In this document: positions 1 through 12,847 of the stretch, piece after piece
Layout: every line of letters starts with the position of its first letter
Position numbering within the stretch: the stretch's first letter is position 1
Source of the DNA: a virus
Reading direction: 5' to 3' (one strand)
DNA length: 12,847 nt
IMG/VR virus record: IMGVR_UViG_3300045988_150412
The notes under the pieces: generated by a model
The model's input: the letters and a program-made list of their open reading frames with translations, nothing else
What the model was told of the DNA's origin: nothing
Databases searched by the model: none
Translations under genes and position numbers: made by a program

Positions 1-189
1 CTCCCCTCCCCCCCCCCTTTTCCAAACACGCATAATTAAAACAACTGTGCACATTTTTAGGATGATGGGTGTATATAAAACAGATGTGCATAGTTTTATG
101 ATAATGGGCGTGTATAATATGATTGTATATATTTTGGGTGTAAGTGTTTTTAATTAAACATTGGTTAGGCGTTGGGGTTGACACGGAAA
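1..189. repeat. Left inverted terminal repeat, 189 bp. Begins with 'CTCCC CTCCC' followed by a C10 homopolymer. Contains three iterated TGGGYGTRTA motifs. Its inner edge carries a TTGACA -35 hexamer.
   Basis: Reverse complement of 12659..12847 matches 1..189 exactly. Identity ends after 'ttgacacggaaa'. Confidence 0.95.
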
Positions 190-206
190 TTGAATGACGA
201 TATAAT
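178..206 (+). promoter_or_regulatory. Sigma-A type promoter, TTGACA-17-TATAAT. It drives the rightward structural and lysis operon.
   Basis: TTGACA at 178-183, a 17-nt spacer, then TATAAT at 201-206. The first ATG is at 224 or 236. The -35 lies inside the ITR and the -10 lies just outside it. Confidence 0.7.
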
Positions 207-223
207 AAAAGTAAATAAATAGG

Positions 224-427
224 ATGGTGTTGATTATGGATCTTACAATTCTATCAACGGTAGTAAGTAATTTAGGATTTCCGATTGCCGCGTGTTGCGC
301 CATGTTCTACATGTTAGAAAAGCAGTCAAAGAGGCACAGCGAAGAAGTCGAGAAATTGACGAAAGCGCTCGATAATAATACAGAGGTGATGGAGGAGATT
401 TTAGCCAAGTTTAAAGAGGTGGTGTAA
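224..427 (+). CDS. Small membrane protein of 67 aa (63 aa if it starts at ATG 236). One N-terminal transmembrane helix plus a charged helical C-terminus. Holin-like, or alternatively a membrane-anchored scaffold-like protein.
   Basis: Hydrophobic segment LTILSTVVSNLGFPIAACCAMFYML, followed by a Lys/Glu-rich tail. It is the first gene after the promoter, and its stop codon abuts the connector ATG. Confidence 0.35.
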   Translation: MVLIMDLTILSTVVSNLGFPIAACCAMFYMLEKQSKRHSEEVEKLTKALDNNTEVMEEILAKFKEVV

Positions 428-1351
428 ATGGCGCGCAAGGATTATGATGTAGGAGCAGGAATGTTTTATCGATTAACAGATTTCACAGACAAACGTCAAC
501 GCGTCGCTGACTACATCATATACATGCTATCAAGAACAGCTCAGATGTTCGAGTATGACGGATTACCTGAAACTATTCCGCGTTTGAATTTAGAGCGTTT
601 AATACAAACGCATGGCCATGTCTGCGTTACAAATGTTAACGGTGAGTTATATGCTCTATTTGGAGGTTTAGGCGGAGAGCCTAGCCCTTATTACATGCCT
701 ACAATCTATACGGTTGCTAATCCGGCTTTAAATTATGACGCCAATTTAGTAATTGGACAAGATTGCGAAATCATTTACAATGATTCGATGTGGTACGGAT
801 TGATGCCCTTGTTCCGCAGGTATGCGTCGTTGCTCGTAGAAAATGACATATCCATGCGCATGGTCAACGTAAATTCCCGCGTGTCGATGCTTATTAAAAC
901 TCAATCGGAGCGCGAAGCATCGTCCGCTAGACAATTCTTATGCGACATAGAAGCCGGAAAGCAGGGTGTTTGCGCTGAAAGCTCTTTCGTGGAAGGTCTT
1001 AACACACTCCCCTATTCAACCCCGTCAAGCGGTCGAGATGTTACAAGTCTGATTGAATATCAACAATATTTAAAAGCGTCGTGGTTTAATGAGTTAGGGC
1101 TTAATGCTAACTACAATATGAAAAGAGAGGCGATTAATAGCGAAGAGGCGCAATTGAATGAGGACGCTTTATTACCCCTCGTTGATGATATGCTATCGTG
1201 TAGACAAGAGTGTTTGGATAAAGTTAACGCAATGTATGGAACCAATATTTCAGTTAAATTTAAATCTGCGTGGAAAATCAATAATGAAGAAATGAATGAA
1301 CCCGTTGAAGATGTAGAAATTAAGGAGGTGGAAAATGATGAAACTGATTGA
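428..1351 (+). CDS. Head-tail connector (portal) protein, phi29 gp10-like, 307 aa.
   Basis: Same length class as phi29 gp10 (309 aa). Recalled similarity: N-terminus MARK..., a Q(L/M)FE(W/Y)..LP.TI.P..LE..I block, and a C-terminal ...C..K(I/V)N..YG.N(V/I).VKF block. Strong RBS 'AAAGAGGTGGTG' upstream. Confidence 0.7.
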   Translation: MARKDYDVGAGMFYRLTDFTDKRQRVADYIIYMLSRTAQMFEYDGLPETIPRLNLERLIQTHGHVCVTNVNGELYALFGGLGGEPSPYYMPTIYTVANPALNYDANLVIGQDCEIIYNDSMWYGLMPLFRRYASLLVENDISMRMVNVNSRVSMLIKTQSEREASSARQFLCDIEAGKQGVCAESSFVEGLNTLPYSTPSSGRDVTSLIEYQQYLKASWFNELGLNANYNMKREAINSEEAQLNEDALLPLVDDMLSCRQECLDKVNAMYGTNISVKFKSAWKINNEEMNEPVEDVEIKEVENDETD

Positions 1352-3134
1352 TCTATTCCCGAACTGGTTGACAGGGGGCGGAATATTCGTTCTCTTTAAT
1401 AACCCCCCTTGGGTAGACGATGTAGAATCTTCGGCGCTCGATGTTGAATATTTCGGCAATCGTTCAGGCGAAAAGCTTATTGCTCCATTATTAAATAAAT
1501 TAATGGTTGATGACCAAATTTCTGATGCCAATCGGCAGAAACTTGTAAATGCTATCTGGGCTCGTTTCGGGAAAAATTGGACAAAATTGTATAATACTCT
1601 TAAAGAGGAATACAATCCGATTGAAAATTATAATATGACTGAGAAGGGTACATATACAGATACCGATACCGGGTCATTAGATCGTAGTGATAAAGTCGAA
1701 TATGGTAAAACGGTAAACAGCACCTCCGGGCAACAGTCTACTTCTCATGATCAATATTATGGTTTTAACGTATCCCAAGCCGGATCAGGCAAAAACACCA
1801 ACGGCACGGATGCGAACATAAGCGGACAGGGGTCTAATACTGAGGGTGGTCAGGATACAAAGACAGGTAGAGATACGCATACTTATAATAAAAGCGGGTC
1901 GACTACACACACCAGAAGCGGGAATATAGGCGTAACTACTACGCAACAGCTTATCGAATCTGAGCGTAATTTATGGCTCTGGAATTATTTTGACGCGGTA
2001 TTTTCTGACGTGGACACCATGCTTGTATTACAAGTGTTCGGTTTTGATTCGTGTTGTTACGAATACGCGCCCGGTTCCGGCGGTTCGTCTTATATCCTTC
2101 CTGTAGCTACAGCCACCACCTTGGGTGGTGTTAAATTACGCGGGGCGTCTTCGGTGGCAAATCATTACGCGGCAATCGACACTGACGGATACGTGAAATA
2201 CCAATATCCGGGCTTGGCTTCATACAGCAACTATGGCCTTGTTCGGCCGGTAAATAAAACCGGCAATATGTCACAGGCCGTTGGCGTTGACGAGTTCGGT
2301 CAGCTATTCACAGCTCCGAGCGGTGAATCTTACGTTCTCCCGGTGGCATCTCCAACCACCTTGGGCGGCGTGATGCCGGTCAATAAAACGTCGGCCATGT
2401 CTCAGCCGGTCGGCGTTGATGCTACAGGTCAGCTATTCACTGCTCCAAGCGGAGAATCTTACGTTCTCCCGGTGGCATCTTCAACCACCTTGGGAGGCGT
2501 GATGCCGGTCAATAAAACGTCGGCCATGTCTCAGCCGGTCGGCGTTGATGCTACAGGTCAGCTATTCACTGCTCCAAGCGGAGAATCTTACGTTCTCCCG
2601 GTGGCATCTTCAACCACCTTGGGAGGCGTGATGCCGGTCAATAAAACGTCGGCCATGTCTCAGCCGGTCGGCGTTGATGCTACAGGCCACTTATACACGG
2701 CTCCGGGCTCAGGCGTTGAAACGGCTCCGTTCTTATCGCAATCGGTTCACATTTCCGGGGTTCAAACAATCACAGAAACAAACGTTAATGTAGATTTAAA
2801 TATAGCTAACGTGTCTGGAAATTGGGATTATGTAGGATATGACGGCACAACTGCAGACATTGCGGACGATGAGCAAACATATGTTTCAGCGGTTCTTATA
2901 TGCTCTGGAGCTGGGAACACCGTGGTGCGTGTGGGAATTATTGACGGCACCAACACCGAGACCCCCTTGATTTCCGGGAATTTAGTTCACACGTCAAATA
3001 CAATTACTATTTTATCGGTTTCTGACATGCCTTTAAATTTAGCCCCCGGCGATTTCAGAGTACAAGTAAACACAGAGGATCAATTAAATGTGTTGATGGG
3101 CACGGTTACATTTAAGAAGAGAATTTTAAATTAG
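1335..3134 (+). CDS. Tail fiber / appendage (receptor-binding) protein, 599 aa, with 43-aa tandem repeats. The N-terminal ~150 aa may be a collar-attachment domain.
   Basis: Three near-identical 43-aa repeats 'SYVLPVAS(S/P)TTLGGVMPVNKTSAMSQPVGVDATGQLFTAPSGE', plus a degenerate upstream copy. The A(S/T)xxTLGGV pattern recalls phage tail-fibre repeat motifs. Ser/Thr/Gly/Asn-rich composition. Located directly after the connector gene. Confidence 0.55.
   Translation: MMKLIDLFPNWLTGGGIFVLFNNPPWVDDVESSALDVEYFGNRSGEKLIAPLLNKLMVDDQISDANRQKLVNAIWARFGKNWTKLYNTLKEEYNPIENYNMTEKGTYTDTDTGSLDRSDKVEYGKTVNSTSGQQSTSHDQYYGFNVSQAGSGKNTNGTDANISGQGSNTEGGQDTKTGRDTHTYNKSGSTTHTRSGNIGVTTTQQLIESERNLWLWNYFDAVFSDVDTMLVLQVFGFDSCCYEYAPGSGGSSYILPVATATTLGGVKLRGASSVANHYAAIDTDGYVKYQYPGLASYSNYGLVRPVNKTGNMSQAVGVDEFGQLFTAPSGESYVLPVASPTTLGGVMPVNKTSAMSQPVGVDATGQLFTAPSGESYVLPVASSTTLGGVMPVNKTSAMSQPVGVDATGQLFTAPSGESYVLPVASSTTLGGVMPVNKTSAMSQPVGVDATGHLYTAPGSGVETAPFLSQSVHISGVQTITETNVNVDLNIANVSGNWDYVGYDGTTADIADDEQTYVSAVLICSGAGNTVVRVGIIDGTNTETPLISGNLVHTSNTITILSVSDMPLNLAPGDFRVQVNTEDQLNVLMGTVTFKKRILN
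2322..2708 (+). repeat. Tandem direct repeat, 129-bp unit in 3 copies. Copies 2 and 3 are essentially identical. It sits inside the fiber gene.
   Basis: 'gaatcttacgttctcccggtggcatc...' recurs at 2325, 2454 and 2583, giving a period of 129 nt (43 codons, in frame). Confidence 0.9.
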
Positions 3135-3147
3135 GGAGAGAATTAAA

Positions 3148-4323
3148 ATGAACGTACAGCAAATTTACACAATTATCAACACTGTAACAAATGAGGAATT
3201 AGGTTTATCCGAAGTGGTGCAGGAGGATTTAAGCAACATTGTAGATGTAGGCACGGCGGTTTTTAATGCCAACGCCCTCGACAATTATGTAAAATCCCTT
3301 GTCGATCACATAGGCCGCGTGGTCTTCGTCAACCGTCCCTATCGCGGTTCCGCCCCATCTGTAATTATGGATGGTTGGGAATACGGTAGCGTCTTAGAAA
3401 AAATCACGTGCGATCTTCCGGAAGCAACGGAAAATGAAAGCTGGGAGCTGACCAACGGTCAATCTTACGATCCTAATGTATTTTATAAACCTACAGTTTC
3501 CGCAAAATTCTATAATAAGCGAGTCACATTTGAAATTCCTATGTCCTTCACTGAAAGACAGGTTAAGGAATCGTTTAGTAGCGCTGAACAGCTTAATGCC
3601 TTCATGTCTATGCTCTATACGGCTATTGAGAACAGCATGACCGTTAAACTTGACGGTCTTGTAATGCGTACAATTAATAATATGATTGGTGAAACATTCA
3701 ACGCTGATTTCACGGGTCAATCCGCTGGCAAGTTTGGAAATAACAGTACCATGCGTTGCGTCAACTTACTTTTCCTTTATAATCAGACCGTTGCAACTAA
3801 GTTAACCTCTGAAAACTGTTTAAGTGATCCTAGTTTCATTCGATTCGCGGCGGCTTTGATGCAGAAATATGTTTATAGATTAGGTAAACTTTCTACCTTA
3901 TTCAATGTAGGTAAAAAAGAGAGATTCACCCCGAAAGACAGATTGCATTTCATTCTTCTTGCTGATTTTATGACCAACGCAGATGTTTATTTACAATCTA
4001 ACACTTTCCACAATGAATTTACCGCACTTCCTAACGCAGAGCTCGTACCCTTCTGGCAAGGCTCCGGCCTCAGTTACGACATGGGCGAGATTTCTGAAAT
4101 CAACATTAAAACCGGCTCTGGTACGATCATTAATCCTACAGGCATTCTTGGTGTGATGTTCGACCGTGACGCTTTAGGCGTGACAAATATGAATCGGCGA
4201 GTTACTTCTAATTATAATCCCAAAGCTGAGTTTTTCAACAATTGGTATAAAATGGACGCTGGTTATTTCAATGATTTAAATGAAAACTTCGTCGTTTGGT
4301 ACGTCGCGGATTCTCAAGCTTAA
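3148..4323 (+). CDS. Putative major capsid protein, 391 aa.
   Basis: Inferred from size and its position in the virion operon. A GC-rich hairpin lies immediately downstream, typical of a highly expressed capsid gene. No other ORF is a plausible capsid candidate. I recognise no sequence motif, so the call is by exclusion. Confidence 0.45.
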   Translation: MNVQQIYTIINTVTNEELGLSEVVQEDLSNIVDVGTAVFNANALDNYVKSLVDHIGRVVFVNRPYRGSAPSVIMDGWEYGSVLEKITCDLPEATENESWELTNGQSYDPNVFYKPTVSAKFYNKRVTFEIPMSFTERQVKESFSSAEQLNAFMSMLYTAIENSMTVKLDGLVMRTINNMIGETFNADFTGQSAGKFGNNSTMRCVNLLFLYNQTVATKLTSENCLSDPSFIRFAAALMQKYVYRLGKLSTLFNVGKKERFTPKDRLHFILLADFMTNADVYLQSNTFHNEFTALPNAELVPFWQGSGLSYDMGEISEINIKTGSGTIINPTGILGVMFDRDALGVTNMNRRVTSNYNPKAEFFNNWYKMDAGYFNDLNENFVVWYVADSQA

Positions 4324-4336
4324 AATTAACCATTTT

Positions 4337-4371
4337 CCCCGCCGTGGCCTTCTCCTTTCTCCACGGCGGGG
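4337..4371 (+). other. GC-rich RNA hairpin with an 11-bp stem and a 13-nt loop, and no U-tract. Candidate attenuator or mRNA-stabilising structure after the capsid gene.
   Basis: 'ccccgccgtgg' at 4337-4347 pairs with 'ccacggcgggg' at 4361-4371. There is no T-run on either side. Confidence 0.5.
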
Positions 4372-4395
4372 AAACATTGAATTGAGGAATTAATT

Positions 4396-4857
4396 ATGGA
4401 CATAACATTATATGCGTCAAACGAAGCGCCAGAATTTGTGACGAAAGCATTAAACAATATTACGACTGTTAGCGGGCAGGCAAACATGCCCCTAGACATA
4501 CTTAACCCTGTTGTTGATCTTGATTTAAGCACCTTAGGAGCTGAGCCGGTAAGCACATATGGCATTAATTATGCATATATTGCGGAATTTAAAAGATATT
4601 ACTTCATCAATAGATTTGAAATTTTAGCTACAGGAATATATAGATTATATTTACATGTAGATGTTTTAATGTCGTATCGCAACGATATTTTGAATAATAT
4701 TGGAATTATACGCAGGCAACAGAATTTATACGACCTGTATTTAAATGATGGGTCATTAAAAGTTGAAAATTATCCAATGTTACAAACTCTTGTTTTTAGT
4801 AACGGGAACATATTTGACAATTGGAAATATATCGTCACCGTTGCCGGAGGTGCTTAA
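4396..4857 (+). CDS. Hypothetical virion protein, 153 aa. Possibly a collar, scaffold or minor tail component.
   Basis: ORF with RBS 'GAGGAA' upstream. It lies in the structural operon between the capsid and tail-knob genes. No recognisable motif. Confidence 0.5.
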   Translation: MDITLYASNEAPEFVTKALNNITTVSGQANMPLDILNPVVDLDLSTLGAEPVSTYGINYAYIAEFKRYYFINRFEILATGIYRLYLHVDVLMSYRNDILNNIGIIRRQQNLYDLYLNDGSLKVENYPMLQTLVFSNGNIFDNWKYIVTVAGGA

Positions 4858-4858
4858 T

Positions 4859-6607
4859 ATGCCAGCTTTTATAACTACAGATATAGGCCGAAAATACTTT
4901 TTCGGCCGAAGATATAACGGAGATGATCAACTATCAACGCCGATATCAGTGCCGCCAGGCAATACTTCAAAAGAAAAATATAGAGCTTCAACATTTCAAC
5001 TCGACACCTCTAAGTTAGATATTCCTGACCCTCCAAATTTTTCCTCTGTTCATATAACTGAAAAATACAGCGGCTTTAAATATGGTTTAAAAGGCGGGGG
5101 TTATTTGCAGTTTGGACTACACAGCGAATATGACCCTTCTAGCACGCGCGGACACTTTACATCATGGGTAAAATGGGCTGTTTTTGATTCTGACGATACG
5201 ATCGTAGGTAGTCACATAATGGGCGTCGCGCGCTCTAATGATATTTGGGCGAAGACAATTGAATTAGTTAAAAAAGATTCATACGCATTATTATTCGTGT
5301 ATAATACTCAAGCCTCGTCTGAATACGGTGGCACCTACAGCTTTGTGGAATTTGATGCAACAAATACTTCTGGCGATTGGGGAACTGAGTTACAAAACAA
5401 ATTCGATAAATTCATAAGCGGCAGAACCAACCCCCAGGGTGAGGTGTTGGGAATCGCTATTAACGATCTGATTATTAAATGCTTCGGAAAAGCTCTGTAT
5501 TTCCGGGCTAACGCGAAAGACACCGGCGGTACCGGTTCAGATAATCAAGTAGGTGGCGGATCGAGTAACCCCACCGGAAACGGCGGCAACACCGGCTTTG
5601 GAGGTGACAGTAAGCCGCAGGGCGGCGGTTCAACTCTCGATTATAAAACCGACATGATTTCTAAAACTCCAAACACCCCCCCATACGCTCAACAGGCCAT
5701 ATCTTCCGGATTCGTGACAACGTATGTGATGAGCGCGTCTAATATGCGAAGTTTAGCGTCATATATGTGGTCAAAGAGCTTCTTGGATAATATACCTAAG
5801 CTTTTACAAAATCCCATGGAAGCATTAATATCAGTGAACCTATCGCCTCTGAACCCACCACACGGAAGCGATATTCAGAAGGTCAAGCTTGGCACACTTA
5901 CAAGTGATGCCAACGGATTTTTACTTGCAAATCAATACGGCACATTTAATTTAGGATCAATAAATTTAGGTGAATACTGGGCGAATTATCTTGACTATGC
6001 ACCATATACGGAGGTAAGCATATTCTTACCATATATAGGGACATTTGATCTTAATGTTGATGACGTCATGAACAGCGTTCTTTCTCTTCAATATGTGGTA
6101 GATTTCTTGAGCGGCACTTGTGTTGCGAGTTTGACCGTACAACGAGGCCAATTAAACAGCGTACTCTATCAATGGGGGGGAAACATATTTACAACCGTAC
6201 CAGCTACAGGGGCAGATTATACAGGTCAGTTAACAGCATTAATTAGCGGGGTAACGGCGACCGCCGGATCACTATTGACCGGAAACGCCGGAACCGTGGC
6301 CACTACAGCAGTCAATGCGGCGGTTTCTACCTTAACCACTAAGAGGCATGTATTAAGAGGTTCCGGAATGACCAAGAACGCCGGTACGCTGGGTGTAGCT
6401 CAACCGTATCTTGTTGTTTCGCGCCCAGTTCAATCTATGCCTTTTAATATGTGGTGTGATAAGGGCTTTCCTTCAAATATCGGCAGACCTCTTTCAGAGC
6501 TTAGCGGTTATACTGAAATTGATTATATTCATTTACAAGGAATCCAAGCAACTCAAGATGAAATTAATGAAATATATGGATTGTTGAATAAGGGGGTCAT
6601 TTTCTGA
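4859..6607 (+). CDS. Tail knob / distal tail tube protein candidate (phi29 gp9-like role), ~582 aa from ATG 4859. Has a Gly-rich linker and a long hydrophobic Ala/Thr/Gly loop.
   Basis: The ORF-track start at 4763 overlaps the upstream gene. The in-frame ATG at 4859 has RBS 'GGAGGTG' and follows the upstream stop. Gly-rich low-complexity segment at about 5515-5635. A ~45-aa hydrophobic segment at about 6213-6345 resembles the membrane-inserting loop of the phi29 tail knob. Size is similar to gp9 (599 aa). Confidence 0.4.
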   Translation: MPAFITTDIGRKYFFGRRYNGDDQLSTPISVPPGNTSKEKYRASTFQLDTSKLDIPDPPNFSSVHITEKYSGFKYGLKGGGYLQFGLHSEYDPSSTRGHFTSWVKWAVFDSDDTIVGSHIMGVARSNDIWAKTIELVKKDSYALLFVYNTQASSEYGGTYSFVEFDATNTSGDWGTELQNKFDKFISGRTNPQGEVLGIAINDLIIKCFGKALYFRANAKDTGGTGSDNQVGGGSSNPTGNGGNTGFGGDSKPQGGGSTLDYKTDMISKTPNTPPYAQQAISSGFVTTYVMSASNMRSLASYMWSKSFLDNIPKLLQNPMEALISVNLSPLNPPHGSDIQKVKLGTLTSDANGFLLANQYGTFNLGSINLGEYWANYLDYAPYTEVSIFLPYIGTFDLNVDDVMNSVLSLQYVVDFLSGTCVASLTVQRGQLNSVLYQWGGNIFTTVPATGADYTGQLTALISGVTATAGSLLTGNAGTVATTAVNAAVSTLTTKRHVLRGSGMTKNAGTLGVAQPYLVVSRPVQSMPFNMWCDKGFPSNIGRPLSELSGYTEIDYIHLQGIQATQDEINEIYGLLNKGVIF

Positions 6608-7377
6608 TGAATATCATCGAATCTTTTTTAACTAAAAACGATTGTTATAAACAAGGAAAAAAGCTAAAACTTGAGGGCTTAATGCTCCACTCAGTCGCAT
6701 GCCCTCAGCCCAAGGCTTCGGTCTTCGTTAAAAGCTGGAACCGCTCCGGCATTAAGAAGTGTGTTCATGCGTTTATTGATGCGAAAAATGGATATGTGTA
6801 TCAAACATTGCCTTGGCTAATGCGAGGCTGGCACGGTGGAAAGAAGTACAGCAACGATCATTATATTGGCGTTGAGATGTGTGAACCTTCATGCATTGAA
6901 TACACTGGAGGATCAACTTTTAAAATGAAAGATCCCGCTCAAGCTCTGGCTCAAATTAAAAACGCTTATAATTCAGCCGTGGAGCTATTTGCGTTTTTAT
7001 GTTTGAAATATAATTTAAAACCTAGCTCAATTTGTTCTCATCGCGAAGGTCATGCCAAAGGTATCGCGAGTGATCACGGCGACCCGGAACACCTATGGAG
7101 GTGTTCCGGCTTCGGAAAAACAATGACCGACTTTCGCGCAGATGTGGCGCGTGAGATCCAACAACAAAAGGGAGGTGATGAAGTGACGCAAGAGGATTTC
7201 AATAAAATGATGAATACTTATTTAGAAGAACGCTCGAAAGAACCAAAATCCGATTGGGTCAACGCTAACGACGCCGCAGGCATCATGCATGGCGACGCAG
7301 ACGGCGCCATGCGCTGGCGTTCCTTTGTGACGCGCGAAGAAGCTGTTACTATGATCGCGCGCGCGATCAAAAAATAA
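6607..7377 (+). CDS. Endolysin: N-acetylmuramoyl-L-alanine amidase (Amidase_2/PGRP fold) with an SLH-like C-terminal motif, 256 aa.
   Basis: N-terminus 'MNIIESF...' parallels B. subtilis XlyA 'MVNIIQDF'. Zn-ligand-type H...H...C spacing (HSVAC, GWHGG, HREGH). C-terminus 'GIMHGDADGAMRWRSFVTREEAVTMIARA' resembles an S-layer-homology half-repeat. TGATG overlap with the upstream stop. Confidence 0.8.
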   Translation: MNIIESFLTKNDCYKQGKKLKLEGLMLHSVACPQPKASVFVKSWNRSGIKKCVHAFIDAKNGYVYQTLPWLMRGWHGGKKYSNDHYIGVEMCEPSCIEYTGGSTFKMKDPAQALAQIKNAYNSAVELFAFLCLKYNLKPSSICSHREGHAKGIASDHGDPEHLWRCSGFGKTMTDFRADVAREIQQQKGGDEVTQEDFNKMMNTYLEERSKEPKSDWVNANDAAGIMHGDADGAMRWRSFVTREEAVTMIARAIKK

Positions 7378-7405
7378 GAGAGGTTTAAACCTCTCTTATT
7401 TTTTT
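7376..7405. terminator. Bidirectional rho-independent terminator between the two convergent operons.
   Basis: Perfect 22-nt palindrome 'aagagaggtttaaacctctctt' at 7376-7397. It is flanked by an A-run upstream (7369-7375) and a T-run downstream (7398-7405), so it reads as stem plus U-tract on both strands. Confidence 0.8.
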
Positions 7406-8490
7406 GATCCGCACCATATGACGTAATTTCTCACAAGATCACCGACTTCGTTGTCTTGGTAGAAAATCTTATCATTAGAAAACAGCGCATGAATCTTTTT
7501 TTCAATTTTAGTTACCGGTCTTAAAATTGATCGTCTCCAATTGGGGCGCGGATCATAATCCGGGCTGTATATGAGGTCACCATCAGGATCTTTCAATTCG
7601 GTTGTTTTTCTATGAATATATATAAATGTACTCTCTTCCACATTGACACACTCACATTGAAGCATTTCGTCGTTAAATAATATGAAAAAGGTGAAATCTA
7701 CGTTTACAGGTGTATACTTGATAGGGCAATGAGGATAAATATCAAGCTCCCAAACACCTGTTTTTATCATTTGCAATTTAGGATTATCAAATGCAAAATA
7801 AGTATCTGAAGCTTTACCACCTTGCCCCGCCGCGGTAGCGCAATATTCAACGGCGACACGAAGATCAGAAGATCCGTATGTGTATAGGTCAATGTCTCCG
7901 GGCTTCATTTGTTTAACGTGTGTTAGCCCCATTTCTGAAAAATAGGGGCAATATTGGTTAACCGTATTGCCGCACATGAAAATCTTCACGTTGCTTCTGT
8001 GCCGAATAATCGTGCTTAAACAATTCATGAATAGCACGAACTCATCTGGAAGATACGCGCGTCGTGTCAAAAATTCATCGAATAAAACAGTTGTAATATT
8101 TGGGAATGACGAACTTTTGTCATGTTCCATTGAAGAAATTGAAAACCCGAAAGCAAAGGGGTCTTCGTCCCTTATTACATTCTTCGGATCGTCAGGATCT
8201 TTAAATTGGAGCCACCAACGTCCCGAATAATAATAAACGCTGTTCCATGCGCCATTTGTCAGCCGCTCCACAGCTCCCGTTTCAATGTGGCCGTCAAAGA
8301 GAGATGCGCCGCGTTTACCTTTCAAGTCATCCTGCCATCTTCTTATTATTGCCGTTTGTTCGTGATACTTGGAGTACCGATCTAATGCGTATTCAAGAAC
8401 GGCGTAGGTCTTGCCGTTCGATCTTTCACCAAAGATCATATTATATTGAGCTTTTTTGCTCAATATCTTTTTTAGTCTGTAAAATTTCAT
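7396..8490 (-). CDS. DNA packaging (encapsidation) ATPase, phi29 gp16-like, 364 aa.
   Basis: Walker A 'GERSNGKTYA' at residues 21-30, matching phi29 gp16 'GARGIGKSYA'. Walker B block 'NITTVLFDEFLTRR' matches 'NVSTIVFDEFIREK'. 'VKIFMCGNTVNQYCPYF' matches 'VRCICLSNAVSVVNPYF'. RBS 'AGGGGT'. Overlaps the polymerase 3' end by 50 nt. Confidence 0.8.
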   Translation of the reverse strand: MKFYRLKKILSKKAQYNMIFGERSNGKTYAVLEYALDRYSKYHEQTAIIRRWQDDLKGKRGASLFDGHIETGAVERLTNGAWNSVYYYSGRWWLQFKDPDDPKNVIRDEDPFAFGFSISSMEHDKSSSFPNITTVLFDEFLTRRAYLPDEFVLFMNCLSTIIRHRSNVKIFMCGNTVNQYCPYFSEMGLTHVKQMKPGDIDLYTYGSSDLRVAVEYCATAAGQGGKASDTYFAFDNPKLQMIKTGVWELDIYPHCPIKYTPVNVDFTFFILFNDEMLQCECVNVEESTFIYIHRKTTELKDPDGDLIYSPDYDPRPNWRRSILRPVTKIEKKIHALFSNDKIFYQDNEVGDLVRNYVIWCGSKK

Positions 8491-10603
8491 TTATACCCCT
8501 TTTTAAATAATCTTTAAACTCGCGCGCAAATGTCATGTCATAAGACGCACCGGAAAGATGCACACTGCTGTACTCATGATAATACCCCTCATTGCCGGCA
8601 TAATCAACAACATGTCCCTCCTGCTCGCGGTCAATATAAGTATGTATATTCTTCCCCGTTGCTTCTTCAGGGAAAAAAAGCCCCTCTTTAAATAGATCGA
8701 ACGGATCGCGATCTTTCGACAATAGCCAAGGCACGGCTTTTTTCTTATTAACGCCAGATACTGTGATAGATAATTCACCGTCAATTTCAGTCATATACCT
8801 TTTAGCCCCCAAGGTTTTAAACCTTGTATACGTACCTTCATATTCCCACACACCCAAAGGCTTGGACTGGCCTTTAATGGTTCGGGGCGCGGCTTTCGTC
8901 TCGTCTATTTTATGATATTTTAACGCATTTTTTACACGCTTTTGTATATCGGCATTATATCGTTCAAAATAATCCATATGCTTTTCCGCGTTTATAAATT
9001 TAACTGAATCCGTATCGCTGTAAACATAATCTTGACCTAATTCGTATATCGCGGAAAAGAGGTTCCGGCGCGCGTATGCCGTTACCCACACCCCCCAAAG
9101 GTAAGACAAGAACCTGCCTTTTGAGTTGTTGTATTTTTCTATTTCCTCTGAAACATCGGCGCTCTTCCTGCACCAGCCATTCACATTATAGATATTTTCA
9201 TCTCGGCAAATGTCTGTTACACACATGCCGTAAGCAGAATTTATATCTTGCTTTGCTAGCAAATAATCCAATTCCGAACCTTCCACCCCCTTGAGTGTGG
9301 TTTTTGATTCGTACAATGTTATAATTTCGTTCACAAAATCAGTCGGTAAATGCCCCCTGCGATATACAAACATCATCCCCACAGCCATGTGTTCCCATTG
9401 GTAGAATTTTTCTAATGTGAAAAAATCTTGTTCAGTTAAAGATGTGTAGACCGTATCAGCCCACACCACACGACCGTTATTGATCTGTCGCGATCCCTCT
9501 ATTTTACATTTCGACGCTGAAAGTGGATTGTCGTGCCAAAGGCGCGGTGTCAAGCCTTCAAACTTAATATTAAACATGCAACAGTATTTTTTCAAATACC
9601 GCCTAAATTCTAACTTATTTTCAGGTTCCACCCTTTGACCCTTTGACATGGGGAAAAGTTCGGACACCATAACCGTTGGATATGATGACGCAAGATCATA
9701 TGACGCAACATCATTGACCGTGACCCCCACATATTTATAATGCGCATGAGTGAATCCGCCTTGAAATGCGGATTTCGCGAGCTCATACTCTTCAGGCTCT
9801 AATGTTAACCTGCTCATTAATTTATGATTGTTCAACCATTTATAAGGCGAATCCTTAGTCTGCCGGGTGCAGGCACGCCTAAACCTGCGGCGCACATATC
9901 CGGTTTTAGTTAGCGGAATCTTCCAAATATATCCACCTTCGGTTTGCATTTTTTCGTAAATACCTGCTTGTACTATTTGAATATCTCTGATGCAATACCC
10001 GATTTCTTTATCGGTCAGTATTGTGTCGGAATGTCTGACTTTTGAATAATCGAGATCCCCGGTCAGCTTCTCCATTTTAACGTGTGTGAAATGTTTACTC
10101 CAATCATCCAGAGAGTATCCTGTCAAAATGTATGAGCAACGGAACTCTACACCGTCCACCGTGCGGGCTTTAATCGGTTTTCGATCATCAAGAGCGAAGA
10201 CATTAGCCCACTCAAATCGTTGACAAATAAACTGAAATTCGTAACTTAAATTATGCACGTATACAACCATTCTAAAAGTGTCGCCAAGATTGAACATCCG
10301 AACCAAACGGCTTATTAAAATGTCGAATTGCTCCCAAGTTCGGCCGTAGATGTTCACGCCGCTTATACCAAACTGCCATACGTACATAAACGCGACCTTT
10401 TCACCGCCTAACGTGTATGTGCTTGTTGTCTCAATGTCAAAAGCCGCGGGCGCGTTCAACCAGCAGACCTTTTTTGTGTCTTTAGAAAATCCCAAATTTA
10501 GAGATTTTATGCGATCTATGAAGATATTCAATTGATTAAAACTGTAAACCTCAGTCAAGAGGTTTGAAGAAGTCGCTAACTGATGCCCGATCTGCATAGC
10601 CAT
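8441..10603 (-). CDS. Protein-primed family-B DNA polymerase with 3'-5' exonuclease, ~720 aa.
   Basis: Exo I 'FDIETTS'. Exo II 'YVHNLSYEF'. Exo III 'YCIRDIQI'. Motif A 'YDLASSYPT' (Dx2SxYP). Motif B 'KQDINSAYG' (Kx3NSxYG). Motif C 'YVYSDTDS'. KxY 'GAKRYM'. The track start at 10606 is GTG, and the first ATG is at 10603. Its 5' end overlaps the upstream ORF. Confidence 0.95.
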   Translation of the reverse strand: MAMQIGHQLATSSNLLTEVYSFNQLNIFIDRIKSLNLGFSKDTKKVCWLNAPAAFDIETTSTYTLGGEKVAFMYVWQFGISGVNIYGRTWEQFDILISRLVRMFNLGDTFRMVVYVHNLSYEFQFICQRFEWANVFALDDRKPIKARTVDGVEFRCSYILTGYSLDDWSKHFTHVKMEKLTGDLDYSKVRHSDTILTDKEIGYCIRDIQIVQAGIYEKMQTEGGYIWKIPLTKTGYVRRRFRRACTRQTKDSPYKWLNNHKLMSRLTLEPEEYELAKSAFQGGFTHAHYKYVGVTVNDVASYDLASSYPTVMVSELFPMSKGQRVEPENKLEFRRYLKKYCCMFNIKFEGLTPRLWHDNPLSASKCKIEGSRQINNGRVVWADTVYTSLTEQDFFTLEKFYQWEHMAVGMMFVYRRGHLPTDFVNEIITLYESKTTLKGVEGSELDYLLAKQDINSAYGMCVTDICRDENIYNVNGWCRKSADVSEEIEKYNNSKGRFLSYLWGVWVTAYARRNLFSAIYELGQDYVYSDTDSVKFINAEKHMDYFERYNADIQKRVKNALKYHKIDETKAAPRTIKGQSKPLGVWEYEGTYTRFKTLGAKRYMTEIDGELSITVSGVNKKKAVPWLLSKDRDPFDLFKEGLFFPEEATGKNIHTYIDREQEGHVVDYAGNEGYYHEYSSVHLSGASYDMTFAREFKDYLKRGINEILQTKKDIEQKSSI

Positions 10604-11126
10604 CACTCAAACTTTCGTATATTTGTTTAACGTAATCCATCACGTCAACATTTTCCAAATCTTCTATTTCACGCAGTTCAGTTTGGAGTTGAGAAGATCC
10701 GTAATCTTTATTTAACTCAACCCCCATTTCAGATTCAATTTTTCGGTACAAATCCCAGTAAGCTTTAGCGCGCGCAAGCTTGTTTTCCTCTGATCCGGAT
10801 ATAGCGCCGGCTGTTTCTTGAACGAACTTCTTATAAGACTTAGCGCCGGCCACTGATGCGGTTTCCTTAGACGCGAACGATTGTATACGATTCAATTCCC
10901 GCAATAATTCATTGCGGTTTTTTCCGCGCGTTCCGAAGTGCGCCCCTCCGCTTCTTTCAAGCCCCTTAACGGCGGGCGCGTAATCAGCATATTTTCCTAA
11001 ATTTTTTATGCGCTTGTTTAGAGGTGCAGCTCCCACTTGAACAACTTTCGCGAGCTCGGCGCGGCTAAGCTTTGAAGCCTGTTCCATATTTAGATTTAAC
11101 ACATCCGCAAGATTCTGAATCCTCAT
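10551..11126 (-). CDS. Candidate terminal (priming) protein, 191 aa from ATG 11126. The track begins it at GTG 11135.
   Basis: Lies immediately upstream of the polymerase and overlaps it, as phi29 gene 3 does with gene 2. Basic, HTH-like N-terminus (LSRAELAKVV, KRIKNLGK) and an acidic Ser/Asp-rich C-terminus. No other ORF of terminal-protein size sits next to the polymerase. Confidence 0.4.
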   Translation of the reverse strand: MRIQNLADVLNLNMEQASKLSRAELAKVVQVGAAPLNKRIKNLGKYADYAPAVKGLERSGGAHFGTRGKNRNELLRELNRIQSFASKETASVAGAKSYKKFVQETAGAISGSEENKLARAKAYWDLYRKIESEMGVELNKDYGSSQLQTELREIEDLENVDVMDYVKQIYESLSDGYADRASVSDFFKPLD

Positions 11127-11310
11127 CTTGAACACCCCACTTATCGATGTATATAAACGCCATAGACGACCTTGGTGTTAAACCCCGTTCAGCTCGGGAT
11201 AATGCCGCGACCGTCACTTTATACTCATAACTTAACTCAGATAAAGAGAGACCCGCATTTCTGCGGGCTTCTCTGCATTTACTCCAAAATTCTGGCGAAC
11301 GTTTAACCAT
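11065..11310 (-). CDS. Small HTH DNA-binding protein, sigma-70 region-4-like, 81 aa. Putative transcriptional regulator.
   Basis: 'AGLSLSELSYEYKVTVAALSRAERG' fits the sigma region 4 / LuxR-type HTH pattern (GLS..EIA...G.S..TV...L.RA). TAATG overlap with the upstream gene. Overlaps the downstream terminal-protein candidate by ~60-70 nt in another frame. Confidence 0.5.
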   Translation of the reverse strand: MVKRSPEFWSKCREARRNAGLSLSELSYEYKVTVAALSRAERGLTPRSSMAFIYIDKWGVQDEDSESCGCVKSKYGTGFKA

Positions 11311-11690
11311 TATCCCACCACCTTCACCGTGGTGATGTTGCGGCCGGCCTTAGTCTTAGTCTCTTCAAGTTGAACCTTAACGCCGCCGGACGATTCGAGA
11401 TCTTCGGACGCGCTGGAAATGTCACCCTCGTACATTTCAACCCACGAAAGAGCGATCTTTGTTAGCACTGTCCCCCCGAAGTAGTACACATGTTCATCTT
11501 CGGCGATGGTGAAGACAGGGAAGGTGTTGCCATTGATATTTAACATATCAAACCGATTTAAGGTGATGCCTTCGGCATATGATGCGATCAAATCTGACGT
11601 GGAAACCTTCTGCCGTCCCTCCATTAAGGGGCTTAACTCTGTCGCCTTCTGCGCTTGTGCTGTGAATTTTGAAATTGCGTTTTGGATCAT
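11310..11690 (-). CDS. Hypothetical early protein, 126 aa. Weak resemblance to the phi29 p5 single-stranded DNA-binding protein in size, position and C-terminus.
   Basis: RBS 'AGAGAGGA'. 126 aa against 124 aa for phi29 p5. C-terminal 'VKVQLEETKTKAGRNITTVKVVG' loosely matches recalled p5 '...FKVKVVQGTSSKGNVFF'. Sits at the position of phi29 gene 5 in the early operon. Confidence 0.25.
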   Translation of the reverse strand: MIQNAISKFTAQAQKATELSPLMEGRQKVSTSDLIASYAEGITLNRFDMLNINGNTFPVFTIAEDEHVYYFGGTVLTKIALSWVEMYEGDISSASEDLESSGGVKVQLEETKTKAGRNITTVKVVG

Positions 11691-11737
11691 TTTTAATCCT
11701 CTCTTTCTCCCCGTTTTGCCGTTAGGTCAGCAATTTA

Positions 11738-12040
11738 TCATTCGAAAATCTGTAAAATTAAATCATGGTAATCATTGTTGTACACTTTGAAAGTCCTTCC
11801 TTTACAATCTCTAGTCATCCTCTCGCCTACGATTTTTAAAGATCTGTCCCAACGCGCCAAAATAGTGAACTCGTCCGGGATGTGGCAATCGCCGTCGACA
11901 ACGGGGATCGTGATCTGATCATCAAGATCTGATAATACAGCAACTTTTAAATTCAAGTATTCATCATCGCGACCGATGAATACCAGCGAGCCGCTCAATG
12001 TGTTGAACTTGACCCTTTTATAATCACATAAAGTCTTCAT
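11738..12040 (-). CDS. Hypothetical early protein, 100 aa.
   Basis: Strong RBS 'TAAGGAGGCGG'. ATGA start/stop overlap with the upstream gene. No recognisable motif. Confidence 0.55.
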   Translation of the reverse strand: MKTLCDYKRVKFNTLSGSLVFIGRDDEYLNLKVAVLSDLDDQITIPVVDGDCHIPDEFTILARWDRSLKIVGERMTRDCKGRTFKVYNNDYHDLILQIFE

Positions 12041-12414
12041 ACTAGTGCCGCCTCCTTAAGGTCAAAATTGGGGATTTCTATGCCGTAAAAACGTTTTTTC
12101 CAGATGAATGCCATAGCTTTCGCCCAAGCATCTGGGCATAGACGCATGACGCTGGGGGTGTGGTGAGGGAATACGTCACCCACCACGCTATTTTCAAAAA
12201 CTCCGTCCATGATCTGAGCATTCGCTCGTTCCTCGGCTGCCTTCCAATCTTCTGCCTCCAATATCAAGAGGCTGTATAAATTCGACCCGGTGACGTCTGC
12301 ATTAAGCACCACCGTCGCCGTGCCGCCCCAGTCAATGAACGCGCGTGACGGGCTGAACGACTCCCTTTGACGGTGCCCTTTTGCGCCGAAAACTGCGAAC
12401 GTATAAAATTTCAT
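12037..12414 (-). CDS. Hypothetical early protein, 125 aa from ATG 12414. The track extends it to 12447.
   Basis: RBS 'AGAGAGGAGGAA' lies directly before ATG 12414, which overlaps the upstream 49-aa ORF stop in an ATGA arrangement. The longer start at 12447 has no RBS. Confidence 0.55.
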   Translation of the reverse strand: MKFYTFAVFGAKGHRQRESFSPSRAFIDWGGTATVVLNADVTGSNLYSLLILEAEDWKAAEERANAQIMDGVFENSVVGDVFPHHTPSVMRLCPDAWAKAMAFIWKKRFYGIEIPNFDLKEAALV

Positions 12415-12563
12415 TTCTGTTCCTCCTCTCTTGCGGCTTCGTGCCAAGAAATCAAATCCTTAATGTGATTCATGGCGCGCCATTCTTCATAGGTGATCTT
12501 CAGGATCTCTGTGCTCATGAGCGCGTCATACAAGGCATCACAAGCTCTTTCAATTTTAGTCAT
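12414..12563 (-). CDS. Hypothetical small early protein, 49 aa (MTKIERACDALYDALMSTEILKITYEEWRAMNHIKDLISWHEAAREEEQK). It is not in the ORF track.
   Basis: Strong RBS 'GAAAGGAGATG' 6 nt before ATG (reverse complement of 12561-12563). It is the first gene after the right-end promoter. Its stop overlaps the next ATG. Confidence 0.5.
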
Positions 12564-12588
12564 GATTAACATCTCCTTTCTATATTAT

Positions 12589-12618
12589 ATTATATCACGA
12601 AAAACAACACTTTTGCAA
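12589..12618 (-). promoter_or_regulatory. Leftward promoter for the replication and early operon: TTGCAA, an 18-nt spacer, then an extended -10 TGaTATAAT.
   Basis: On the minus strand, TTGCAA at 12613-12618, an 18-nt spacer, 'TGa' at 12595-12597 and TATAAT at 12589-12594. The RBS and 49-aa ORF start about 25 nt downstream. Confidence 0.5.
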
Positions 12619-12632
12619 TACTTTTTGCAATG
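12608..12632. promoter_or_regulatory. Tandem 11-12-bp direct repeat 'cttttgcaata' / 'ctttttgcaatg'. Each copy contains the palindromic TTGCAA. Candidate operator that overlaps the -35 of the leftward promoter.
   Basis: Direct reading of 12608-12632. Confidence 0.4.
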
Positions 12633-12658
12633 TTTTTTATGTGTTATTTATATGTACT

Positions 12659-12847
12659 TTTCCGTGTCAACCCCAACGCCTAACCAATGTTTAATTAAAA
12701 ACACTTACACCCAAAATATATACAATCATATTATACACGCCCATTATCATAAAACTATGCACATCTGTTTTATATACACCCATCATCCTAAAAATGTGCA
12801 CAGTTGTTTTAATTATGCGTGTTTGGAAAAGGGGGGGGGGAGGGGAG
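12659..12847. repeat. Right inverted terminal repeat, 189 bp, a mirror copy of 1..189.
   Basis: Direct comparison of the window end with the reverse complement of the window start. The terminal 'ggggggggggaggggag' mirrors the 5' 'ctcccctcccccccccc'. Confidence 0.95.

Follow-up and report, generated by a model that had tools for sequence, protein, structure and literature searches.

A probably complete 12.8-kb genome of the phi29 lineage with long inverted terminal repeats and a predicted collar-fibre fusion

Phi29-like phages share a hallmark gene set made up of p8, p9, p10, p11, p2 and p16; more than 2,000 phi29-like entries are on record, many of them 12-14 kb long, and an 11-14-kb 'cluster 23' has been defined (PMC11476376, Evseev et al. 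2024). The minimum known size, 11.6 kb, is that of Astrid (bioRxiv 10.1101/2025.06.18.659913). Cultured members span 10.4-12.3 kb, and those closest to the genome described here, all of 10.4-11.9 kb, are the Salmonella phages astrithr, Astrid and assan, Acinetobacter phage Phanie, Pectobacterium phage DU_PP_III, Enterobacter phage Entb_47 and Vibrio phage K58 g2. The present report deals with the IMG/VR virus record IMGVR_UViG_3300045988_150412, a stretch of 12,847 nt that was analysed at its full length and is called the window below. It is very likely the linear double-stranded DNA genome, complete or within about 10 nt of complete at each end, of a virulent mini-podovirus of the phi29 lineage, which belongs to an uncultured lineage sister to Astrid, astrithr and Phanie and most likely infects Gram-positive gut Clostridia.

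The window is a member of a known group and its species is already public. Its major capsid protein (MCP) and its encapsidation ATPase are identical to GenBank DAM55046.1 and DAM55049.1, respectively ('MAG TPA Caudoviricetes sp.', DAM55046-DAM55058), and an independent assembly from another sample, contig L014, represents the same species, being 99.8% identical across window positions 71-12777. Compared with the cultured relatives, the window is 42-46% identical in the family-B DNA polymerase (PolB) and 54-58% in the MCP; for the nearest of them, Astrid, astrithr and Phanie with 11.5-11.9 kb, the values are 46% and 55-58%. A protein-by-protein BLAST comparison with astrithr found ten counterparts in the same local order, at identities of 25-55%. 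At the nucleotide level, a search of 50,697 phage records with the complete window (megablast) returned a single match, of 154 nt at 76%. More distant relatives are human-gut contigs of 12-14 kb named 'Bacteriophage sp.' and the 12.3-kb Amedibacillus phages. In a database of 5.8 billion proteins, nearly all of 8,000 scored polymerase candidates had an E-value (E) below 1e-20, and their longest contigs cluster at 11-13 kb, while exact-peptide scans for PolB in IMG/VR and in the GTDB genomes (185,579 species, one genome each) found no relative.

Genome form, gene set and layout

The two ends of the window (1-189 and 12659-12847) form inverted terminal repeats (ITRs) that are 100% complementary over 189 nt and reach the window ends, a match too long to have arisen by chance. 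A preliminary description of this DNA had reported these exact repeats, dense coding between them, a phi29-lineage gene set and two convergent operons that meet at one bidirectional terminator. All four observations were borne out, the gene set by matches of the 307-aa, 364-aa and 721-aa (amino acid) proteins to PF05352, PF05894 and PF03175. The features that carry the reading are the following (ORF, open reading frame).

1-189: left ITR, exact inverted repeat of 12659-12847, presumed replication origin
428-1351, plus strand: connector/upper collar (gp10-like), 307 aa; PF05352 E 1.8e-15, PHROG 2038 E 4e-36
1335-3134, plus strand: 599-aa protein read as a fusion of lower collar (gp11-like, nt 1335-2054), repeat shaft and TNF/C1q-like knob (about nt 2742-3131)
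3148-4323, plus strand: MCP of phi29 type, 391 aa; PF25622 E 1.2e-56
4396-4857, plus strand: predicted N-terminal part of the tail knob, 153 aa; astrithr gp09 as counterpart (29% identity, E 9e-14)
4859-6607, plus strand: probable C-terminal part of the tail knob, 582 aa; matches astrithr gp10 with 25% identity over residues 290-464, E 1.5e-6, same position
6607-7377, plus strand: endolysin, N-acetylmuramoyl-L-alanine amidase with a C-terminal domain, 256 aa; PF01510 E 1.4e-14, PHROG amidase E 3e-33
7369-7404, both strands: bidirectional intrinsic terminator, a perfect 18+18-nt palindrome (36 nt) overlapping the stop codons of both operons
7396-8490, minus strand: DNA encapsidation ATPase (gp16-like), 364 aa; PF05894 E 2.2e-19, PHROG 2150 E 2.5e-32
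8441-10606, minus strand: protein-primed PolB, 721-aa ORF, likely ATG at 10597 giving 718 aa; PF03175 E 5e-13, PHROG 1907 E 2.4e-62
10551-11135, minus strand: candidate terminal protein, 194-aa ORF directly upstream of PolB, likely start at 11126 giving 191 aa
12659-12847: right ITR, exact reverse complement of 1-189

The main assignments lie well above the family cut-offs. The connector scores 57.6 bits against PF05352 (cut-off 25.6) and is 40% identical to astrithr gp06; the MCP scores 193 bits against PF25622 (cut-off 27) and is 58% identical to that of Phanie and 55% to that of astrithr. The ATPase reaches 70.5 bits against PF05894 (cut-off 25), carries a Walker A motif (GERSNGKT) at residue 21 and a Walker B motif (VLFDE) at residue 135, and is 52% identical to astrithr gp04. 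PolB, a family-B polymerase of the 'organellar and viral' kind with 49.1 bits against PF03175 (cut-off 25.8) and 46% identity to astrithr PolB, contains all the expected motifs, namely ExoI (D57xE), ExoII, ExoIII (Y204x3D), A (D304), B (K452x3NSxYG), C (YSDTDS) and KxY, and its sole sequence match in the PDB is the phi29 polymerase 1xhx. The phi29-like hallmarks found in the window are p8, p10, p11, p2, a gp16-type ATPase and a linear genome with ITRs.

The tail knob appears to be encoded in two parts. A profile search with the 153-aa family reached the N-terminal region of the Andhra (8egs_Y) and C1 (4eo2) knobs at E 0.002, and the protein shows an in-register match to residues 91-131 of phi29 gp9. 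The 582-aa protein, which has no match in Pfam, the PDB or NCBIfam, is probably the C-terminal part, to which it is linked only through astrithr gp10; in the astrithr cluster gp10 is the C-terminal part of a split knob (PMC11476376). Its mechanical ORF starts at TTG 4763, and the ATG at 4859 agrees with the gene models of L004 and L014. This part is a single gene in the window (4859-6607), L004 and L014, and two genes (207-211 and 280-380 aa) in L005 (6080-7825), L007 (5887-7698) and L013 (5769-7580).

The candidate terminal protein gene overlaps PolB in every relative, and its product belongs to a conserved family homologous to astrithr gp02 (E 1.5e-9). No similarity of this family was found to phi29 p3 by hhalign or to the PDB by profile search; the astrithr cluster is listed with a p3-like terminal protein (PMC11476376). 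From its position and family, the 194-aa ORF product is a candidate terminal protein, and a covalent linkage to the 5' ends is putative.

Neighbour-joining (NJ) trees of PolB and MCP place the subclade of the window beside other uncultured lineages, in a group whose sister is the proteobacterial Astrid cluster; phi29 is very distant. The PolB phylogeny had been proposed in the preliminary description, which had called the genome phi29/Cp-1-like; it is indeed a protein-primed podovirus of the phi29 lineage, but its nearest relatives are the members of the Astrid/Phanie cluster and neither phi29 nor Cp-1. Among metagenomic contigs, PolB identity to the window is 90% for L004, 77% for L005 and 55-57% for L007 and L013. 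A further contig, L009 (13,290 nt), has all genes on one strand in another order and an imperfect, offset terminal repeat (88.6% over 88 nt) that starts with a C-tract, and may be rearranged or mis-assembled.

Coding density, with refined start codons, is 95% of the window and 98% between the ITRs, and the non-coding gaps outside the end regions measure only 13, 72, 1, 18 and 47 nt. Seven genes run rightward (236-7377) and eight leftward (7396-12563). The palindrome at their junction folds at -30 and -30.7 kcal/mol on the two strands (z -9.9 and -9.4) and is bordered by A and U runs on both, which makes it a textbook bidirectional intrinsic terminator. The convergent arrangement had earlier been called unusual, and the size near the smallest among tailed phages. 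Neither description holds: the same layout is present in at least eight relatives (L004, L005, L007, L010, L011, L012, L013 and L014), Astrid is smaller, and an 11-14-kb phi29-like group is documented. Since the layout recurs in relatives and has parallels in the terminator and gene order of phi29, it is a clade trait rather than an oddity, and both size and layout are ordinary for a group of 10-14-kb phages.

Two promoter-like sites, whose function is predicted from the motifs, face inward from the ends.

178-206, plus strand: sigma-70/sigma-A promoter of the rightward virion and lysis operon, TTGACA-17-TATAAT, 12/12 consensus
12589-12618, minus strand: promoter-like site of the leftward early/replication operon, TTGCAA-18-TATAAT, 10/12 with an extended -10 TG

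The -35 box of the left promoter (178-183) sits inside the ITR, and the same junction between ITR and -35 box is seen in L005 and L004. As TTGACA lies at the inner edge of the ITR, both genome ends share sequence upstream of the promoters. The motif of the right promoter is conserved in L004 and L005, and so are tandem CATTGCAAAAAG boxes at and upstream of it (12589-12640, minus strand), which may be operators or alternative -35 elements. Right after the capsid stop codon lies a GC-rich 14-bp hairpin (4334-4374) without a U-tract; the 83-nt segment containing it folds at -29.5 kcal/mol (z -3.9), and all relatives have a gap at this place. Possible roles are those of an attenuator or of an RNA-stability element that sets the ratio of capsid to tail proteins. 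A GGAGG-type ribosome-binding site precedes nearly every gene, and no tRNA was found in the window. For the prohead RNA (pRNA) there was no Rfam match at E up to 1, and the largest gap outside the end regions is 72 nt; a divergent packaging RNA that overlaps the ITR is possible.

The collar-fibre protein and the remaining genes

It is the 599-aa protein that sets the window apart most from its cultured relatives. Its gene comes after the connector gene, as gp11 does in phi29. The first approximately 240 aa align with gp07 of astrithr and Phanie (about 185 aa) and with hundreds of metagenomic proteins of 238-280 aa, so that the lower collar or tail tube (p11) of the phi29-like set is represented. 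In an alignment-based model of this domain, residues 1-90 and 210-235 are confident (block-mean pLDDT, the predicted local distance difference test, of about 89-98) and form a helical core with a very long beta-hairpin. The C-terminal approximately 360 aa are found only in the subclade of the window. They are built of YxLPxAxxxLGGV...VGVDxxGxL repeats, three of which, of 43 aa each, are nearly identical and are encoded by a 129-nt array (nt 2298-2704, 96% matches), and the domain that comes after the repeats varies between lineages. In the full-length model, the terminal domain (residues 470-599, pLDDT about 80) adopts a TNF/C1q-like jelly-roll fold. With E-values of about 5e-6 and a target-normalised template modelling score of about 0.6, it matches ExsFA, BclA, TNF-like lectins, a Bdellovibrio fibre tip, the spike knob of a phage and the binding domain of a cyanophage short tail fibre. 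PDB searches at the sequence level with the 582-aa protein, the fibre part and the N-terminal collar domain returned nothing, and collar and knob are resolved by structure prediction only. Based on the collar alignment, the gene position, the repeats and the knob model, the 599-aa protein is read as a fusion in which a lower collar is joined to a fibre bearing a knob of trimeric, receptor-binding type. No description of such a fusion was found in the literature searched, which is absence of evidence only.

The repeat array varies within the species, as it has three copies in the window (599 aa) and two in L014 (556 aa; L014 2176-2505). The shaft region (2001-3000) has a guanine-plus-cytosine (GC) content of 50-53%, compared with a genome mean of 42.6%, and this raised GC suggests that the fibre module was acquired horizontally.

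The other genes of the window are one small rightward gene and the five early genes of the leftward operon (HTH, helix-turn-helix).

236-427, plus strand: small membrane protein, putative holin, 63 aa; PHROG 4898 holin E 5.6e-6; mechanical ORF starts at 224
11065-11310, minus strand: 81-aa protein with a weak XRE-type HTH; its matches to HTH_31 (E 7e-4) and HTH_3 (E 1.4e-3) fall short of the gathering score
11310-11690, minus strand: 126-aa early protein, function unassigned; 68% mean column identity in 7 genomes, the most conserved small protein of the clade
11738-12040, minus strand: 100-aa early protein; ORF with a GGAGG ribosome-binding site, no family matches
12037-12414, minus strand: 125-aa early protein; ATG at 12414 with a GAGGAGG ribosome-binding site, mechanical ORF to 12447, same model in L014, no family matches
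12411-12563, minus strand: 50-aa protein, first leftward gene; same gene model in L014, no significant matches

The putative holin is 28% identical to astrithr gp05 (E 3e-10), which occupies the same position; it has a hydrophobic segment at residues 9-27, and its counterpart in Astrid is annotated with a transmembrane segment. By its place in the operon, the 81-aa HTH protein is a candidate transcription regulator and positional analogue of phi29 p4. A single-stranded DNA-binding role of the 126-aa family is suggested only by its position and size, in which it is like phi29 p5; comparisons with p5, the PDB and Pfam gave no match. Weak Pfam matches to HCV_capsid, HTH_18, ORF6C and HTH_6 lie below the gathering scores and were dismissed.

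Several genes overlap. The 3' end of PolB and the start of the ATPase gene share 50 nt (8441-8490), an overlap kept in L004, L005 and L014 and absent from L007, and 62-71 nt are common to the HTH gene and the gene of the terminal-protein candidate (11065-11135); these overlaps possibly serve translational coupling. Between the collar and capsid genes, the window (3135-3147), astrithr and Phanie have no scaffold-sized ORF, and an extra ORF of 86-141 aa is found there in L009 (2777-3037), L010 (10770-11195) and L011 (10625-10921). The catalytic domain of the amidase is 37-39% identical to ORFs in Microviridae genomes from human and pig gut, a likeness that implies exchange of lysins between very different groups of gut phages.

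Termini, lifestyle and host

In the left ITR, a C-rich tip (1-17) is followed by a 39-nt unit in two tandem copies (37-114), both of which contain a TGTGCA(C/T)A near-palindrome, and by the -35 box (178-183). The outermost approximately 17 nt read CTCCCCTCCCCCCCCCC, and the other tip is the reverse complement. Such tips resemble the poly-G noise of two-colour sequencing, the ITR is a single node of the assembly graph, so that identical ends arise by construction, and its outer 70 nt were recovered in no other contig; when viral and metagenome contigs were searched for the ITR, a step proposed in the preliminary description, two patterns of 30-31 nt gave 0 matches. The repeat, or its outer part, could on these grounds be an artefact of poly-G read-through or of an inverted duplication of the contig end, and the genome incomplete or circularly permuted, but we regard this as very unlikely. 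The independent assembly L014 has the inner 119 nt of the ITR at either end and stops inside the repeat at a length equal to the k-mer size in its contig name (k119); L005 stops inside its ITR after 55 nt at both ends, where the same truncation by the assembler is suspected, and no contig was found to run on past an ITR. Moreover, the annotated ITRs of cultured relatives are 171-219 nt long and have a C-tract about 10 nt from the tip: Phanie starts with GGGTTATCCGCCCCCCTCC (ITR 171 nt), DU_PP_III with GGGATATCCGCCCCCCCCCCG (ITR 219 nt) and Entb_47 with CTCTCCCCCG. Similar C-tracts end three independent metagenomic contigs (L009, L010 and L013), and the sites of the tract include window 1-17 and 12831-12847, L008 1-20, L100 1-20 and the right end of L101; Astrid and AD70P2 have no terminal C-tract. 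The gene content is also complete and collinear with that of relatives, with promoters at both ends. Because the same tract lies near the tips of cultured relatives, the terminal C-tract is taken as real and clade-conserved, and a poly-G origin of the CTCCCCTCCCCCCCCCC tips is unlikely. The tract may be an origin element for protein priming, and the window may be short of up to about 5-10 outermost bases, which to judge from relatives could read, for example, GGGxTATCC; its 189-nt ITR is the fullest available for the species, as the others have at most 119 nt.

As to lifestyle, the preliminary description had left open whether this is a virion genome or a linear plasmid or prophage form. The virion genome is preferred, and for the other forms the corresponding genes are missing: no integrase, partition (ParA/ParB), toxin-antitoxin or CI/repressor-type gene was found in Pfam, PHROGs or NCBIfam. 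That the element is a linear phage-plasmid or a temperate element kept in its host, and not strictly lytic, is scarcely probable. Phi29-related phage-plasmids do exist in Enterococcus (cluster 22 of PMC11476376), and the 81-aa protein has a weak XRE-type HTH; however, known phi29-like phage-plasmids measure about 29-30 kb, compared with 12.8 kb for the window, the related contigs all stop at 11-13 kb, and the 185,579 species genomes yielded no relative of the polymerase. The marks of the Enterococcus pBE32_2/EF62phi type, namely ParA with an adapter, a toxin-antitoxin system and a size of about 30 kb, were likewise not found. Another reading, unlikely in our view, would make the window a helper-dependent, satellite-like podophage whose virion is non-infectious alone and borrows the tail of an unrelated helper, as in Phanie. 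Phanie shares 58% MCP identity and the core gene set with the window, satellite lifestyles are reported to be commoner when tailed-phage genomes are very small, the 582-aa probable knob protein is uncharacterised, and other members of the Phanie cluster may share the strategy, according to PMC11476376, which is the second-hand source of the statements on Phanie made here. Helper dependence, however, has been shown only for a Gram-negative host, and the window is predicted to fuse a fibre of about 360 aa and a receptor-binding-type knob to its collar, whereas the collar of Phanie and astrithr has about 185 aa and that source finds no fibre genes in the Phanie cluster. In particular, a Phanie-type element would have no fibre or receptor-binding gene of its own, and in the window a repeat shaft and a TNF-like knob were found. 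Taken together, the lack of temperate and plasmid genes and of a polymerase relative in the GTDB species genomes makes a lytic lifestyle the best reading of the gene content.

Lysins of Blautia and Faecalimonas phages share about 55% identity with the endolysin, which also has 357 confirmed relatives in bacterial genomes (47-62%), almost all in gut Clostridia such as Lachnospiraceae and Oscillospiraceae. Along with the GGAGG-type sites, these relatives make a Gram-positive host among the gut Clostridia likely, although the clue comes from a mobile gene.

Under the preferred reading of a lytic, self-contained phage, the terminal protein of about 191 aa encoded upstream of PolB would prime synthesis at both ITR tips and stay on the 5' ends, the C-tract and the two 39-nt repeats would serve as origins, and the DNA would be replicated with strand displacement. 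Transcription by the host RNA polymerase would run inward, over the early, replication and packaging genes from the right end and over the virion and lysis genes from the left end. The ATPase would package the DNA bound to the terminal protein through the connector, apparently without a phi29-type pRNA. Twelve lower-collar subunits would carry covalently fused fibres whose TNF-like knobs bind the host surface, and the holin-like protein and the amidase would lyse the cell. With fused fibres the phage would be self-sufficient for adsorption, unlike the fibre-less and helper-dependent Phanie.

A broader proposal is offered tentatively, as a possibility that we hold a little short of probable. 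The window may stand for a Gram-positive (gut Clostridia) branch of Astrid-type mini-podoviruses in which a dodecameric collar fused to fibres (a copy-variable 43-aa shaft and a TNF-like knob) replaces the phi29 appendage genes and removes the need for a Phanie-type helper tail, the terminal C-tract being a clade-specific origin for protein priming; this would be an undescribed solution to the minimal tailed phage. The collar-fibre fusion suggests a single-gene adsorption device for a phage of about 12 kb and bears on the dependence of some relatives, such as Phanie, on a helper phage that others may do without. Testable features of origins and promoters in protein-primed phages are offered by the terminal C-tract and by the part of the promoter that the ITR carries. 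Current understanding is not overturned; the group that sets the lower limit of size among tailed phages gains a well-resolved genome, and this genome indicates that the Astrid-type lineage, so far grown in culture on Proteobacteria only, has abundant uncultured relatives whose hosts are probably gut Clostridia.

Comparison with described systems

Phi29 itself has a protein-primed PolB whose motifs are those found in the window, and it also has in common with the window the gp16-type ATPase, the connector, the lower collar, an MCP family of HK97 type and a linear genome with ITRs; its tail knob has a predicted counterpart in the window. It has a bidirectional terminator where the late operon meets the early operon, its gene order p6-p5-p4-p3-p2 resembles the order p100-p126-p81(HTH)-p194-PolB of the window, and its gene 4 overlaps gene 3 as the HTH gene overlaps the terminal-protein candidate. 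In contrast, phi29 has 19.3 kb and a 6-nt ITR, compared with 12.8 kb and 189 nt here, its late promoter depends on an activator whereas the left promoter of the window is a perfect consensus, and its ATPase gene lies at the end of the late operon and not beside PolB, with which it is co-transcribed in the window. PolB and MCP are about 17% identical between the two, approximate figures that come from the NJ alignment only, where gap treatment inflates identities (BLAST values are given wherever they were obtained). The terminal-protein candidate is unrelated in sequence to phi29 p3, no pRNA was detected and the gaps outside the ITRs leave no space for it, and Pfam and PHROG searches of the window found no homologs of separate scaffold, head-fibre, appendage (gp12) and gp13 genes (the gp7, gp8.5, gp12 and gp13 set). 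With no pRNA detected and such a distance from phi29, the window falls outside the Salasmaviridae/Picovirinae in the strict sense.

The Amedibacillus phages AD70P2 and AD70P3 (Guelinviridae, 12.3 kb) are cultured, mini phi29-like phages of a Gram-positive gut host, similar in size to the window and with a 55-nt ITR. They differ from it in sequence (PolB 32%, MCP 27-28%), in having nearly all genes on one strand and in a GC content of 27%, and they branch outside the clade formed by the window and Astrid.

The closest described system is the Astrithrvirus cluster (MCP cluster 23), with genomes of 10-12 kb, ITRs, a split tail knob and, in Phanie, DU_PP_III and Entb_47, the C-tract near the tips. 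Both have the order terminal-protein candidate, PolB, ATPase, and the order small membrane protein, connector, lower collar, MCP, knob N-terminal part, knob C-terminal part, lysin. In astrithr all of these are collinear on one strand, whereas in the window the block of terminal-protein candidate, PolB and ATPase is inverted and lies at the other end, so that the operons converge. The lower collar has 599 aa with a fibre extension of about 360 aa in the window and about 185 aa in the cluster; the lysin is an Amidase_2 of gut-Clostridia type in the former and of CHAP or peptidase type in the latter; and the window has five small early genes in place of four unrelated ones that lie at the other end in astrithr. 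The host of the window is probably Gram-positive, judging from its lysin, whereas the cultured relatives grow on Gram-negative bacteria. The threshold for a genus set by the International Committee on Taxonomy of Viruses (ICTV) is 70% nucleotide similarity. The window shows no genome-wide nucleotide similarity to the genus Astrithrvirus and also lacks its collinear one-strand order.

Among the uncultured relatives, L004 and L005 share all genes and the layout with the window, and L007 and L013 share the layout and the collar-fibre fusion but differ in a Peptidase_M15 lysin, a different fibre tip and a knob C-terminal part encoded as two genes. The points worth following are the probable Gram-positive host, indicated by the endolysin of gut-Clostridia type, the predicted collar-fibre fusion and the clade-conserved terminal C-tract.

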